Shown: in pieces, positions 21,957-26,885 of the stretch | Numbering within the stretch: position 1 is the stretch's first letter | How the letters are laid out: each line of letters opens with the position of its first letter | Assembly (NCBI GenBank): GCA_000934665.2 | Contig: JYFJ02002577.1 | Span: 1 to 54,273 of the forward strand | DNA: 54,273 nucleotides | Direction: 5' to 3' | DNA from: Catajapyx aquilonaris | Taxonomy: Eukaryota | Notes under the pieces: generated by a model | Databases searched by the model: none | The model's input: only the letters and a program-made list of their open reading frames with translations | What the model was told of the DNA's origin: nothing | Translations under genes and position numbers: made by a program

Positions 21957-24900
21957 ATGAAGCCCAATAGATTCCTGAAGGCCTGCAGGAACGGCTGGCT
22001 GGAGATGGTGAAGAGCCAGGTGGAGTCCAGCGGCGGAATTTCTGCTGCGATTGGTGTGACAAACTCTGTCGGTAACCACGGACTGCACCAAGCCTCTAGG
22101 GCTGGGAGGACAGAGGTCGTGGAGTACCTGCTGAGCCTAGGCTGGCCAGTGGACCAGCCGGGCAACAACGGGTACACTGCGTTGCATCTGGCGGCACAGA
22201 ATGGTCACGAGGCTACGTGCGATGCCTTACTTAAAGGAGGAGCTGGCATTGACAGGAAGGACAACGACAGCAATATGGTCATACACCATGCGTCCTACGG
22301 AGGGTTTGTGGATGTCGTGACTTCCCTTCTGCAAGCAGGTGCTAACCTAGACGACAGGGGTGAAATGGGCTGCACTCCACTGCATTGCGCCTTGCTTTGT
22401 CAGCATGCGGATTTAGTCCACTTCCTGGTCTCGAAAGGAGCTGATTTCATGGCTAAGGATGTAACCGGCATGAGTCCGCTCATGCTGGCAAAAGAACGAA
22501 ACAAGGAGTTGTACAAGGTCCTCAAGCAGGTGAGCGTATCGACATGAACTGCAAGTCTTAAGATGCATTTACATGTGCGCGATTCGGTCAACAGTGGATC
22601 CAATTGTTACTTTCGCCCCAAACAATTGGCTTCATTGCTTAGGAATGTTTATTGCTGAGCGAATCGCTCACATGTAAACGCAGCCTTATGTATGAATCAT
22701 ATGGTGATGAGCTGATTAAATAATTGTTTACAGACATACCGCTCGTACTTTTTCCGCTGCTGCTTTGAGGGGGACATTGCAGCGTTGAAAAAGGAGGTTA
22801 CTAGTCGAGGCGGAATCAAGGAGCTGGTCGAAATGAAGAGTGCGAGTGGGAAGGATGGCCTCCAGGTTGCTTCATTGGGTGGAAAGGATGAGGTGGTGAC
22901 TTACCTTCTCAGCGTAGGATGGCCAGTCAAAGAGAAAGGTGGCGACGGTATGACTGCGCTTCACTACGCAGCCGACGCTGGTCATCTGTCCGTTTGCCGC
23001 ATCCTGATCATCAGAGGAGCTGAAGTCGATGCGAAGAACGACGCTGGGAATTCTGCAGTTCACGTAGCTGCATTAAAGGGCCACAATGATGTGGTGAACA
23101 TACTTGTGGGCATGGGAGCGAACTTGGAAGACCGAGGCAGTAATGGGCGGACTCCACTACACATTGCAGCCGCCACTGGTAATGTCACATTGACGAGGCG
23201 CCTTCTAACAAGAGGATCGCAGCGGACGGCGAAAGACGACAGCGGTGCAACTCCCCTAGACTTGGCCAAAGTAAAAGGATGTTCCGGAGTTATCCACATG
23301 CTCGATGTGAGTATTTCTTGCATATGTTGTGGCCGGTAACTGACATGACTTGTTTTCACAGGTTGATGCGGACCTTTTCCTGTCTTCCTGCTGCAAAGGG
23401 GTTAAGGATTCGGTGGGCCAAATATTGGAGAATTCAGGCTGCATCAAGTACTTGCTGCGGATGAAAGATGAGTGTGGGAACAGCGGGCTGCATCTTGCTG
23501 TTCAGCACAAGCGGACTGAGATTGTGAAGCTGCTTTTGGAGAGTGATTGGCCGTTGGATAAGCCAAATGCGGCTTGTCAAACGCCTTTGCATTGTGCGGC
23601 TCGTATTGGGCATGACGCAGTATGCAAGCTACTGGTGGATCAGGGAGCAAACGTGGATCTTAAAAACAGAGACGGAAATGGATCCATACATTTGGCGACA
23701 ATCGGAGGGCATCTGACAGTAGTGAAGTTCTTCTGTGAACTGGAGGCCGGAAAAAAGCTCATCAACAGTACTGGAGCACTCGGGTACACCCCGCTTCACA
23801 TCGCGGCAGTCGCAGACGACATCCCGAGGGCCCGGCTCCTTCTTTCCATGGGTGCGAACCTGCTGGCAAAGGACAACCGAGGGAAGACTCCGATGAACTT
23901 GGCGAAGGAAGCTGGCGAAAGCGACATGAACAAATATTTGATTGACGTAAGCATAATGGTTTTAAAGTGTGTAATCGAAGGATTGCAGAAGGTAATGAAG
24001 ATCGCTGGTGCCTTTCGTTTAACTTGTGCCCATTCGCATGAGAATTATTCATTATCTTAACTGATTGTGTTTTCGCAGGAATTGAACGTTTCCTTTTTCC
24101 AACCCTGCCTGGAAGGGAATTTGAAAATGGTGACCCAAATGGTGGAAAGAGTCGGAGAAATTGGGGAGCTGGTGACATTGAGGTGTGCAATGGGAGAGTC
24201 CGGGATCCACCTGGCCGCAATGAGAGGGAATCTGGATGTGGTCTCGTACTTCCTGCAAATGGGATGGCCTGTGGATGACTTACACGGGGAGAGCATGAGG
24301 ACAGCCCTGCATTACGCTGCGGAAAATGGGCATGCCACAACTTGCAACGCTTTGCTTCGAAGCGGGGCGAGCGTTGGAGCTAAGGATGCGACGGGACAAA
24401 GCGCATTGCATCTAGCTTCAACCGGAGGACACCTCAAGGTGCTGAACCTTCTGATGGAGAAAGGCGCCCGGATTGAGGACCGAGACATGCAAGGTCGCAC
24501 CGTGCTTCACCGTTCCGCAATCAGAGGAAACGTCCAGCTCTCACGACATCTTCTGGCCAAAGGTGCGCAACAGGAAGCGAAAGACAACGAACTATACACG
24601 CCGTTGGACTTGGCCAGATTGAGCGGAAAGACCGAATGCGTCACCTTGCTTCAGGTGAGAATTCTCGAGTGTACATGCGAGCGATGTACATCACCAACGT
24701 CGCTTTAAGCAATTCCATGTTTACAGGTGAATACGCAAGCGTTTCTGTCTGCCTGTACGGAAGGGATGACCTCTACAGCTTTGGGGATACTGCAGAAGGC
24801 GGGAGGAACCGAATGGCTTATGAGAGTGAAACAAGACGATGGAAACAGCGGGATTCATCTGGCGGTGAAGCACAAGCGATGGTGCATAGCCACGATCCTT

Positions 24901-26885
24901 GTCGGCAAAGGATGGCCGGTGAATCAAAAAGGCGAAAGGGACCAGACCATTTTGCACTGGGCTGCCGGAGAAGGAAACATCCCCGCACTAAAGTTGCTGA
25001 TTGATAACGGAGCATGCGTCGACACCAGGGACGGAAATGGCGACAGACCGATCCACTTTGCTGCGAAGAACGGCCATGCAAACGCAGTTGAGGTTCTGTT
25101 GAAAGGATCAGACGTGGACGTACCCGGAGCGTTCGAGTGGACTCCGCTTCATTACGCCGCAATTTGGCGGAAGGTTGAAGTCGCCTGTTTGCTGTTGTCC
25201 AAAGGGGCTGATCCTGCAGCTAAAAACCAGCTGGGAAAGACGCCTCTTGAGTTGGCCGAATGTCAGGGAGACACGTCCATGATTAAACTAATGAAGAAGG
25301 TGCATATTTTCGATCGGACCAATGGTTTAATGTAATGCATGTGAAGTTGCGTTTAACGATGATTTTGTTACAGGTGTACCAGACGCACTTCCTTCGCTGT
25401 TGTGCTGAAGGGAATTTGGAAGCCGTGGAGAAAGGACTGGCCAACCGGGGCGGTGCGAACGGGTTAACAAATTGGAGAGGGGATTCCGGAAAAAGCGGAA
25501 TCCACATGGCCGCTTTGAAAGGACGGAGCGAAGTGGTCAAGTGTATGCTGCGATGGAAATGGCCGGTGGACCAGCAGGAAACTAGGAATCGCGTAACCGC
25601 CCTTCACTGCGCAGCACGGAATGGTCACTACGATACGTGCCTGGTGCTTCTGGAATCCGGCGCAAACGTTTGGGCCAAGAGCTCGTACAATGATTTCCCC
25701 ATTCATATGGCATCGTTTGGCGGACACATTAAAGTGGTTGACATTCTGCTGATGAACGGGGCCAGCCTGAGCGATGAAGGAAAGGGCGGACGGACGCCTC
25801 TTCACAACGCAGCTATTGGCGGCCACGTGGAACTGGTCCAGCACCTGCTAGATATCGGAGCGAACCAGATGGCATTGGACGGAAACAAGAAGAGTCCGCT
25901 GGATGTGGCCAGAGCGTTCAACAACGTACAAGTCATGCGATTGCTGGAGGTCAGTTGCAATTACTCATTACAGCATCTTTTTGTACATGTCGTATGTTCG
26001 CAGGTGAATCCGCAGGAGTTTGTCCTGCACTGCATGCGAGGCGATCTACCCATGGTGCACAAGCTGTCCAAACTGGCAGGCGGCTTGAAGTGGCTTATAC
26101 AGTCGAGGGACAGCGACGGCGATACCGGATTACATTTGGCGGCCAGATACGGACGACGGAACGTCTTCACCTTCCTTTTAAACGCAGGCTGGCCGATCGA
26201 CCACATCGGAGGAAATGGATTCACGCCGCTTCACTGTGCGGCTGCAACTGGACAGCAAGCAATATGTAAAATCCTGATTGAAAAGGGAGCGGACGTCCAT
26301 GCGAAAGCTGCAACCGGATTCAGTGCCATTCACTCTGCTGTGATGGCGGATCATCTATCGGTCGTCGAGCTTTTGCTGCAGTCTGGAGTTGATGTTAACG
26401 TCCAGGGAGCACACGATTGGACTCCTCTTCACTGCGCGTCGACCCTCGGGAAAGCCGGAGCCTGCCGTCTGCTTCTATCCAAAGGGGCCAGCCTGTCCGC
26501 CCAGGATGAAAAAGGGCGGACACCTGTGGGCCTCGCGGAAGGAGCAGGCGACAAGGAAACAATTCGTCTCCTGAGGGAGGTGAGCGAATAATATACGACT
26601 TAAAAAGCGTTTACATGCGAGCGATTTATGTGCATCACTGAGCGAAAGTAACGATATATTTTTGCCCCAAACAATTGGTCTCATCGCATGTAAATCGGCC
26701 GCGTTTGGGCTAATACTTTCTTATTCCAGCATGCCATTATGGAGCTTGGCGCAACATCGGACTCGGAGGAAATTGCATCCAGTAACGACATGTCATCTGG
26801 CAGTGATGATGAGGTGCAGTTTGTGCGAGCGTGCAACCCAAATTCCGTCAACGTCGACCTGGTCGATTGTGACGATGACATGTAA
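21957..26885 (+). CDS. Multi-module ankyrin-repeat protein, about 1395 aa if all exons are joined; module exons 21957-22529, 22734-23306, 23362-23946, 24079-24654, 24727-25299, 25374-25949, 26004-26579, tail exon 26730-26885
   Basis: Canonical G.TPLH.AA..G...VV..LL..GA repeats. Every exon is bounded by AG/GT in phase 0. The last exon is acidic (HAIMELGATSDSEE...DDEVQFV...VDLVDCDDDM). An upstream coding exon cannot be excluded. Confidence 0.9.

Follow-up and report, generated by a model that had tools for sequence, protein, structure and literature searches.

A Catajapyx aquilonaris gene in which seven symmetric exons each encode a six-repeat ankyrin module

We examined a 54,273-nucleotide stretch of DNA from Catajapyx aquilonaris, called "the window" here. 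It contains a gene, termed gene 1, in which each of seven consecutive exons encodes one ankyrin-repeat (ANK) module of six repeats. We consider it probable that the gene specifies an expressed, lineage-specific, constitutively spliced, cytoplasmic multivalent ANK scaffold of 1395 amino acids that is composed of seven modules and an acidic tail. The scaffold function itself would follow from the fold class alone. Each module would keep the ANK framework but present its own surface. Given this shared framework and the module-specific surfaces, the protein would most likely act as a multivalent platform on which several partners, or several copies of one, are brought together, as tankyrase does through five ankyrin repeat clusters (ARCs).

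Exon structure of gene 1

Gene 1 and its parts are as follows.

21957-26885, + strand: gene 1, the seven-module ankyrin gene, with 8 exons, on C. aquilonaris contig JYFJ02002577.1
21957..22529, + strand: exon 1, module M1, 573 nt, 191 amino acids; matches Pfam Ank_2 (E 6e-30) and Ank (E 2e-29)
22530..22733, + strand: intron 1, 204 nt; carries a high-copy inverted-repeat element
22734..23306, + strand: exon 2, module M2, 573 nt, 191 amino acids
23362..23946, + strand: exon 3, module M3, 585 nt, 195 amino acids; a small insert separates repeat 4 from repeat 5
24079..24654, + strand: exon 4, module M4, 576 nt, 192 amino acids; the module whose fold was predicted; donor confirmed by an X5 joint
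24727..25299, + strand: exon 5, module M5, 573 nt, 191 amino acids; both borders confirmed by X5 joints
25374..25949, + strand: exon 6, module M6, 576 nt, 192 amino acids; acceptor confirmed by an X5 joint
25950..26003, + strand: intron 6, 54 nt; in frame and free of stops (open frame 25287-26591)
26004..26579, + strand: exon 7, module M7, 576 nt, 192 amino acids
26730..26885, + strand: exon 8, 156 nt; a 51-residue acidic, Ser/Asp-rich tail plus TAA, without a Pfam family

The seven introns (204, 55, 132, 72, 74, 54 and 150 nt, in order) all begin with GT and end with AG, and each of the eight exons has a length divisible by 3, which gives phase 0 at each junction. This map confirms the initial annotation of the locus, which had listed seven exons of 573, 573, 585, 576, 573, 576 and 576 nt with phase 0 at both ends. 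The annotation was also right that all seven encode the same unit. The modules (~191 amino acids) have pairwise amino acid identities of 29-43%, and tBLASTn with M2 or M7 matches all other modules with E values of 1e-28 to 1e-49.

Translation of the eight exons gives the conceptual product of 1395 amino acids, to which retention of intron 6 would add 18 residues from its open, in-frame sequence. Because an AG acceptor lies immediately 5' of the ATG at 21957, the gene probably has an untranslated exon further upstream; no coding exon was seen 5' of the gene in 18000-21950. A Pfam scan of gene 1 returned ANK families only, and no family for the tail.

A three-module paralogue

The window holds a second gene of the same kind on the opposite strand.

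41276-43332, - strand: paralogue gene, three modules of 573, 576 and 573 nt, phase 0
42760..43332, - strand: paralogue module A, 573 nt; as in exon 1 of gene 1, an AG acceptor immediately precedes the ATG
42133..42708, - strand: paralogue module B, 576 nt, identified by tBLASTn and alignment
41505..42077, - strand: paralogue module C, 573 nt, identified by tBLASTn and alignment
41276..41449, - strand: putative tail exon of the paralogue, 57 amino acids plus stop, acidic, no Pfam family

The window thus contains seven modules in gene 1 versus three in the paralogue. Neither the paralogue nor the three module types described below had been recognized in the initial annotation. A tail motif common to the two genes was considered and dropped, as the tails cannot be aligned (E 3.6). 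The SOCS box of ASB-type ANK-SOCS proteins had no Pfam match in either tail.

Each module resembles a capped domain

In an alignment of ten modules, seven from gene 1 and three from the paralogue, C10 and G13 occur in every module. At least 90% of the modules have F6 as well as W63 and P64 of the "GWPV" repeat, and the last repeat has the form G.TPL.LA. The N-cap, GWPV and C-cap motifs previously pointed out are therefore real. Moreover, the first and last repeats differ from the internal ones in a constant manner: in 10/10 modules, TPLH is missing from repeat 1, and repeat 6 is without the His and does not extend beyond its second helix.

Module M1 scores 104 bits against Pfam Ank_2 (cut-off 27.3) and 100 bits against Ank (cut-off 21.1). 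With Pfam scores above the cut-offs, 10/10 modules aligned and six helix pairs modelled, the modules belong to the ankyrin-repeat superfamily. The predicted fold of M4 (pLDDT 94.9, pTM 0.90) consists of six helix pairs and one short extra helix. Compared with the designed ANK binder 6NE2_B (193 amino acids), this model gives TM scores of 0.92/0.91 and an rmsd of 1.6 Å over 191 columns. The divergent terminal repeats in 10/10 modules and the compact predicted fold of a single module are the features of a capped stand-alone ANK domain, and they agree with the earlier proposal that every exon encodes a self-contained capped six-repeat unit. The nearest ESM Atlas clusters are INK4-type CDK inhibitors of 164-168 amino acids (score 0.99), a match that means no more than "small ANK domain."

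Junctions between modules

The last helix of a module and the first helix of its successor are only ~2-5 residues apart. At so short a spacing, the joint might be rigid or the stack might continue into the next module. We infer that the modules are semi-independent.

The alternative that survives best, although we regard it as rather unlikely, is that the product forms one continuous solenoid of ~42 repeats and serves, like ankyrin or NOMPC, as a superhelical spring or platform. In that case, the periodicity of the exons and the cap-like character of some repeats would be mere relics of the duplication unit. The module boundary does hold the 33-residue ANK register, with the last repeat occupying positions 1-22 and the next module starting from position 1, and the few residues between the junction helices favor close contact over a floppy linker. 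The best PDB sequence matches are likewise solenoids, namely those of the 24-repeat ankyrin-B/R (4RLV, 660 bits). However, each junction lacks the 11-residue loop and the hairpin of a normal repeat, and the terminal-type features of the flanking repeats (TPLH missing from repeat 1, His from repeat 6) have persisted in all ten modules despite ~60% divergence.

A structure prediction across one junction adds little to this. The read-through fold of M6 plus M7, made from a single sequence that includes the 18 residues coded by intron 6, has a junction pLDDT below 50 and a pTM of 0.49. With the junction modelled at this level, its best TMq against 12-repeat stacks is 0.48, with an rmsd of at least 10 Å. 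The model thus fits no 12-repeat stack, but this result counts little against a solenoid, given the intron-coded residues and the low junction pLDDT.

Surface variation and duplication history

Across the ten modules, mean entropy is 2.39 at positions equivalent to those randomised in DARPins versus 1.19 at framework positions. The register used places TPLH at repeat positions 4-7, and the numbering of the randomised DARPin positions is the one that we presume to apply. The combination of a conserved framework with variable surface positions, as initially described, therefore stands, but the variability is not concentrated in the groove: exposed outer-helix positions have an entropy of 2.29 versus 2.39 in the groove (p 0.27). 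Because outer-helix positions are as variable as groove positions, the variation among modules is the general ANK surface pattern and no sign of directed binding-site diversification.

The modules fall into three types: the first; an "even" type (M2, M4, M6 and B); and an "odd" type (M3, M5, M7 and C). The even and odd groups, which were named after the identity matrix had been inspected, each form one side of a branch in the tree, with moderate support of ~79% (79/76 and 79/86) and no starred branch. The type labels require a minimum of 2 changes on this tree, which was equalled in 1/200 shuffles. The best tree does not place M1 next to A as its sister, although a grouping of the two is not rejected (AU p 0.34). 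The lowest dN values are those of the pairs M2-M4, M5-M7, M1-A and M3-M5. Because the modules fall into first, even and odd types, a tandem duplication of even-odd exon pairs is suggested.

All ten module exons are open, and dN ranges from 0.55 to 0.83 among the 45 module pairs. In 30 of these pairs dS is at least 1.5, and in the other 15 it is not computable; it is thus saturated in all 45, which argues against recent copy-number turnover. The module duplications appear to be old, with the duplicates kept intact. The initial proposal of copy-number change is consequently correct in part. Seven versus three modules and a tree that fits in-frame pair duplication favor it, but the turnover is not recent.

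The starting point would have been an exon that already coded for an entire small ANK domain, whose first and last repeats were of the terminal type, and that was tandemly duplicated in frame. The three-module layout of first, even and odd exons, which would be kept in the neighbouring paralogue, was then most likely extended by duplication of the even-odd exon pair.

A bolder interpretation, which we judge to be quite improbable, is that these genes represent a lineage-restricted natural "multi-DARPin" family. Its members would be independently folding one-exon binders whose number and order are tuned by in-frame exon gain or loss, providing diversifiable multivalent recognition, perhaps with occasional exon skipping or retention of intron 6 and with ligands such as self/non-self. 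If the modules are separate binders, gene 1 would be the equivalent in nature of the multivalent DARPins made by engineering, a second natural multi-site ANK scaffold design beside tankyrase, and an unusually clean one-module-one-exon map that records protein growth. At present, it is a tidy case of symmetric-exon duplication within the very large ANK superfamily, neat but not surprising to a specialist.

Splicing

Contigs of run X5 join exon 4 to exon 5 (24654 to 24727) and exon 5 to exon 6 (25299 to 25374) at exactly the predicted GT..AG borders, and neither joint is found in DNA run X1. The consecutive, constitutive joining of the exons is in part directly observed. Introns 4 and 5 are supported by these spliced contigs and the other five by sequence alone; at those five junctions, constitutive splicing would be expected as well.

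These data bear on the possibility, very improbable in our estimation, that gene 1 works as a set of cassettes, its module exons being skipped or selected combinatorially to give many isoforms with differing sets of binding modules. The initial annotation correctly stated that any module exon can be skipped or duplicated in frame. This is true by arithmetic, all lengths being multiples of 3: with symmetric (phase 0-0) module exons, the reading frame survives in any subset of the seven. The strongly different module surfaces and the differing module numbers of the two paralogues would also suit such a system. However, both RNA-type joints (2/2) connect neighbouring exons and no exon-skipping joint occurs among the X5 joints listed, at a thin coverage of 9/30 bins (depth 1-4) and in contigs from which rare isoforms are dropped. 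The splice sites are ordinary, with GTGAG or GTAAG donors in 5/7 introns and pyrimidine-rich acceptors.

Elements of a Dscam-like arrangement of mutually exclusive exons were not found in the introns either. The initial annotation had noticed no docking or selector elements, our search for such an element set in the gene 1 introns found none, and no conserved element is common to the introns. The sole intronic repeats are the inverted-repeat element (introns 1 and 7), a high-copy, mobile-element-like sequence, and a 20-nt piece (intron 4). In intron 1 the arms of the element (22564-22593 and 22653-22682) are 87% complementary, and DNA contig depth over it is 954 versus ~25-28 in the flanks. 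Finally, one study links exon skipping to exons that are short, flanked by long introns and bordered by weak splice sites (PMC6142364). Gene 1, with exons of 573-585 nt and introns of 54-204 nt, has the opposite layout. The combinatorial diversity by splicing that had been envisaged is therefore not borne out.

That this is a decaying or mis-assembled repeat locus without function as a whole protein might be argued from the lack of a close database protein among the matches listed, the repeat-rich surroundings and the mobile-element-like insert in two introns, but it is extremely improbable, since 1395 codons are open over eight exons with intact splice sites, spliced RNA-type contigs are present, one 4075-nt DNA contig covers 22609-26683 without differences, and dN is far under the saturated dS.

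Database relatives and known ankyrin proteins

Searches for relatives returned mostly generic ANK proteins, which crowd the lists to such an extent that relatives with few modules could be missed among them. When longer proteins were searched with M2, 7999 candidates were scored, of which 3255 had E values of at most 1e-10, and identity was at most 39% in the best 120. The ten-module profile had 916,559 matches (E≤0.001) among 1.84 billion representatives, and the best 150 were all giant generic ANK proteins. Among proteins of 105-342 amino acids, identity to the profile was at most 41% in the best 120. The module signature was present in 0/389 database proteins examined, as were paired full-length module matches ~191 amino acids apart. 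The best foreign full-length match to the profile scored 141 bits versus 251-268 bits for the window's modules, which are themselves in the profile.

Among solved structures, the highest scores with the module profile are those of 4RLV (660 bits) and 5VKQ (530 bits). Canonical ankyrins and NOMPC have the repeat framework in common with our modules. However, they are single uninterrupted arrays of 24-29 repeats joined to other domains, whereas the gene 1 array is broken after each six repeats, with a junction that lacks loop and hairpin, and has one module per exon. In canonical ankyrin and NOMPC genes, a single exon holds about one or two repeats. Gene 1, with seven modules and a tail without a family, does not have the single 24-repeat membrane-binding domain and the subsequent spectrin-binding (ZU5-UPA) and death domains of canonical ankyrins (ANK1-3).

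The closest natural analogue is provided by the ARCs of tankyrase (TNKS/TNKS2), which are several tandem ANK clusters in one protein. ARCs are reported to be discrete recognition domains that bind multivalently (PMC5727255), with ARCs 1-3 forming a fairly rigid unit and ARCs 4-5 being flexibly linked (PMC5727255; PMC6439159). A hallmark of the tankyrase clusters is that they bind peptides of the RxxxxG type. In tankyrase, SAM and PARP catalytic domains come after the five clusters, whereas the genes described here have seven (or three) modules, and M7 of gene 1 is followed by only 51 residues that match no Pfam family. A specific kinship of the modules to tankyrase ARCs was considered and rejected, because Tankyrase-1 ARC1-3 (5JHQ_A, 276 bits) is outscored by ankyrins and NOMPC as well as by DARPins and latrotoxin ANK regions.

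A census of ANK proteins by Galpern et al. 2020 reports proteins with up to 10 separate arrays, and terminal repeats distinct from those inside the array; equal six-repeat arrays matching symmetric exons are not described in its accessible portion (PMC7314423). Judging by titles and abstracts, no ankyrin gene with exon duplication or symmetric exons appeared among the open-access literature matches listed.

Designed binders such as 6NE2_B are like one module in size and shape, but they are engineered, whereas the modules of gene 1 are natural and apparently old. In rigid DARPin-DARPin fusions (5LE2-5LEM), a shared helix links the units to make multivalent binders (PMC5593856), and the short helix-to-helix junction of gene 1 could act in a similar way. 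No solved chain among the best 60 sequence matches aligns over profile positions 1-22. Compared with DARPins, the modules have an extra short helix in repeat 1 and a conserved Trp-Pro in repeat 2.

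Structure of a seven-module ankyrin gene

Stop-to-stop frames reveal a series of ankyrin (ANK)-like open frames on the + strand at 21.9-26.6 kb. The gene map, which was read from the DNA and then checked with a script, comprises seven exons that encode modules M1 to M7 and a final tail exon.

Exons of the seven-module ANK gene
21957-22529, +, exon 1, 573 nt
22734-23306, +, exon 2, 573 nt
23362-23946, +, exon 3, 585 nt
24079-24654, +, exon 4, 576 nt
24727-25299, +, exon 5, 573 nt
25374-25949, +, exon 6, 576 nt
26004-26579, +, exon 7, 576 nt
26730-26885, +, exon 8 (tail), 156 nt, TAA at end

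The exon coordinates and lengths of the initial annotation agree exactly with this map. All seven introns (204, 55, 132, 72, 74, 54, and 150 nt, in order) have GT..AG ends. Every exon length is divisible by three, which puts each junction in phase 0. The conceptual product has 1395 aa; its modules match only ANK families in Pfam, and a Pfam search of the tail produced no family.

Each module is a capped six-repeat unit

The seven exon products can be aligned end to end with 29-43% identity. When repeats are assigned on the 33-residue ANK register, repeat 1 (positions 1-37) carries F..C..G.L..V at the TPLH place, repeat 2 ends in G-W-P-V rather than the usual G-A-D-V, and repeats 3-5 are ordinary. 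Repeat 6 carries G.TPL.LA with the His missing and ends after helix 2, and thus lacks the 11-residue loop and hairpin. These terminal-type features occur in 10 of 10 modules, including three from a paralogue described below.

M4 was folded with the 10 modules as the alignment. The model (mean pLDDT 94.9, pTM 0.90) consists of six helix pairs plus a short extra helix after repeat 1, and it overlays end to end on the designed six-repeat ANK binder 6NE2_B (TM 0.92/0.91, rmsd 1.6 Å, 191 columns, 34% identity). Thus, "capped, DARPin-sized module" is apt for each exon product taken alone, as had been proposed from the sequence.

Only ~2-5 residues link the last helix of one module, at residues 185-191, to the first helix of its successor, which starts from residue 2; Pro is found at position 3 in four of the 10 modules. 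A link this short rules out a floppy tether and would allow a kinked rigid joint, a shared helix, or continued stacking minus one hairpin. Joining by a shared helix is described for engineered DARPin-DARPin fusions (PMC5593856). A read-through model spanning exons 6 and 7 with intron 6 included had a pTM of 0.49 and an unreliable junction (pLDDT <50 at residues 193-241); its comparison with 12-repeat stacks (best TMq 0.48, no overlay) carries little weight because of that junction.

A three-module paralogue and the age of the modules

A tBLASTn search of the window with the modules produced a paralogue with modules A, B, and C; it lies on the opposite strand, ~15 kb away from the seven-module gene. 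Its three module exons have GT..AG boundaries and are phase 0.

Exons of the paralogue
43332-42760, -, module A, 573 nt
42708-42133, -, module B, 576 nt
42077-41505, -, module C, 573 nt
41449-41276, -, putative acidic tail exon, follows module C

In both genes, an AG acceptor immediately precedes the start ATG (cag/ATG at 21954-21959 in the seven-module gene and ccag/ATG at 43330-43335 in the paralogue), an arrangement indicative of a 5'-UTR intron, or of trans-splicing, exactly at the start codon. The seven-module gene probably has a 5'-UTR exon ahead of its ATG, and no upstream coding exon was seen in 18000-21950. A long tandem repeat occupies 21.2-21.75 kb directly upstream of this gene, and an (AAT)n run is present near 20.9 kb.

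The identity matrix, the lowest-dN pairs, and a maximum-likelihood tree give three module types: M1 and A; M2, M4, M6, and B ("even"); and M3, M5, M7, and C ("odd"). One branch of the tree sets the even type apart from all other modules and another does so for the odd type (support 79/76 and 79/86; 78% of 200 bootstrap trees), although no branch is strongly supported and the types were defined after the identities were seen. On the tree, the three type labels need just two changes, the fewest possible, which was equalled by only 1 of 200 shuffles. The best tree does not place M1 and A as sisters, but the AU test does not reject their pairing (p 0.34). The simplest scenario would be a three-module ancestor in which exons 2 and 3 were copied together.

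The module duplications are old. Modules share 44-54% nucleotide identity, with dN of 0.55-0.83; of the 45 module pairs, 30 have a dS of 1.5 or more, and for the remaining 15 no dS could be computed. That all 10 module exons are intact despite this age speaks for lasting purifying selection on each module and against a fast-turnover copy-number system. Of the earlier proposal that modules can be duplicated or lost in frame, the phase-0 modular build stands, and so does change in module number over evolution, with seven modules in one family member versus three in the other.

Splicing of the module exons

Evidence of expression comes from contigs of X5, a run of unrecorded kind from a study other than that of the DNA runs. 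These contigs join 24654 to 24727 and 25299 to 25374, removing introns 4 (72 nt) and 5 (74 nt), both GT..AG, and neither joint is present in DNA run X1. Thus, the gene is expressed and introns 4 and 5 are real. Both joints (2/2) connect adjacent exons, although skipped isoforms could escape, since X5 coverage is limited to 9 of 30 bins at depth 1-4 and rare variants are lost from contigs.

Apparent joints in X1 at ~22.6-26.6 kb were rejected as deletions, since their sides are only 21-25 nt with mostly foreign letters between them. They arise because of a high-copy element in introns 1 and 7. In intron 1, it is an inverted repeat (22564-22682) with 30-nt arms that are 87% complementary; intron 7 holds a partial copy (26607-26687) and intron 4 a 20-nt piece (24669-24688), and no other intronic repeats were found in the gene. 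DNA contig depth is 954 at the intron 1 element and 331 at that of intron 7, versus ~25-28 elsewhere, which indicates a high-copy, MITE-like repeat.

Across eukaryotes, exon skipping is reported to be associated with exons that are short, with longer introns on either side, and with weak splice sites (PMC6142364). Here, module exons are 573-585 nt and introns 54-204 nt, donors are GTGAG or GTAAG in five of seven introns, and every acceptor has a pyrimidine tract. These ordinary splice sites, the long exons and short introns, the consecutive joints, and the mobile-element-like nature of the intronic repeats give no support to the suggestion that splicing generates module diversity. Given the gene layout, the only plausible in-frame alternative would be to retain intron 6 (25950-26003), whose 54 nt are in frame and stop-free and would add 18 residues between M6 and M7.

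Surface variation

Entropy was compared over repeats 2-5. Positions equivalent to those randomised in DARPin libraries have a mean entropy of 2.39 bits, versus 1.19 at framework positions (p 3e-7), which bears out the reported conserved framework and variable surface. Exposed outer-helix positions, a set chosen after the table was seen, are similar (2.29 versus 2.39; p 0.27). The variable module surface is the general ANK pattern, with no sign of targeted diversification.

Relation to known ankyrin proteins

In three large searches for relatives, the matches listed were all generic ANK proteins with at most 41% identity. Among 389 proteins retrieved, none carried the module signature and none showed a pair of neighboring full-length matches to the module, which is weak evidence of absence because the lists were crowded by giant ANK proteins.

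In design, the closest natural analogue is tankyrase, whose five ankyrin repeat clusters (ARCs) are described as discrete peptide-recognition domains, with ARCs 1-3 fairly rigid and ARCs 4-5 flexibly linked (PMC5727255). By analogy, the seven-module protein may work like this ARC array. Unlike tankyrase, it has no SAM or PARP domains, and it has no specific similarity to the ARCs (5JHQ scores 276 bits, below generic ankyrins); identity as a tankyrase was rejected on these grounds. A census describes natural proteins that have as many as 10 separate ANK arrays and distinct terminal repeats (PMC7314423), so multi-array ANK proteins are already known as such. The gene belongs to a very well-known kind, as a probable ANK scaffold that expanded by duplication of symmetric exons, and has a clean one-module-one-exon design.

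Neighboring features

The window is animal DNA, and other features lie around the ANK genes.

Other genes in the window
3173-3517 and 13908-14342, +, RNF34/rififylin-like E3 ubiquitin ligase exons (FYVE E 2.6e-5, RNF34L-like E 1.7e-10, C3HC4 RING E 1.8e-13)
27290-28794, -, weakly LRR-like gene converging on the seven-module ANK gene; one exon of 374 codons; all LRR matches below threshold (E 0.005-0.007)
50015-50832, +, fibronectin type III gene, two exons (E 3e-7, 3e-11)

An intronless 605-codon open frame at 46409-48223 (+) matches no Pfam family. In the ORF listings, 20667-20831 (+) and 31812-32180 (-) have closely similar translations and probably belong to one interspersed repeat family.
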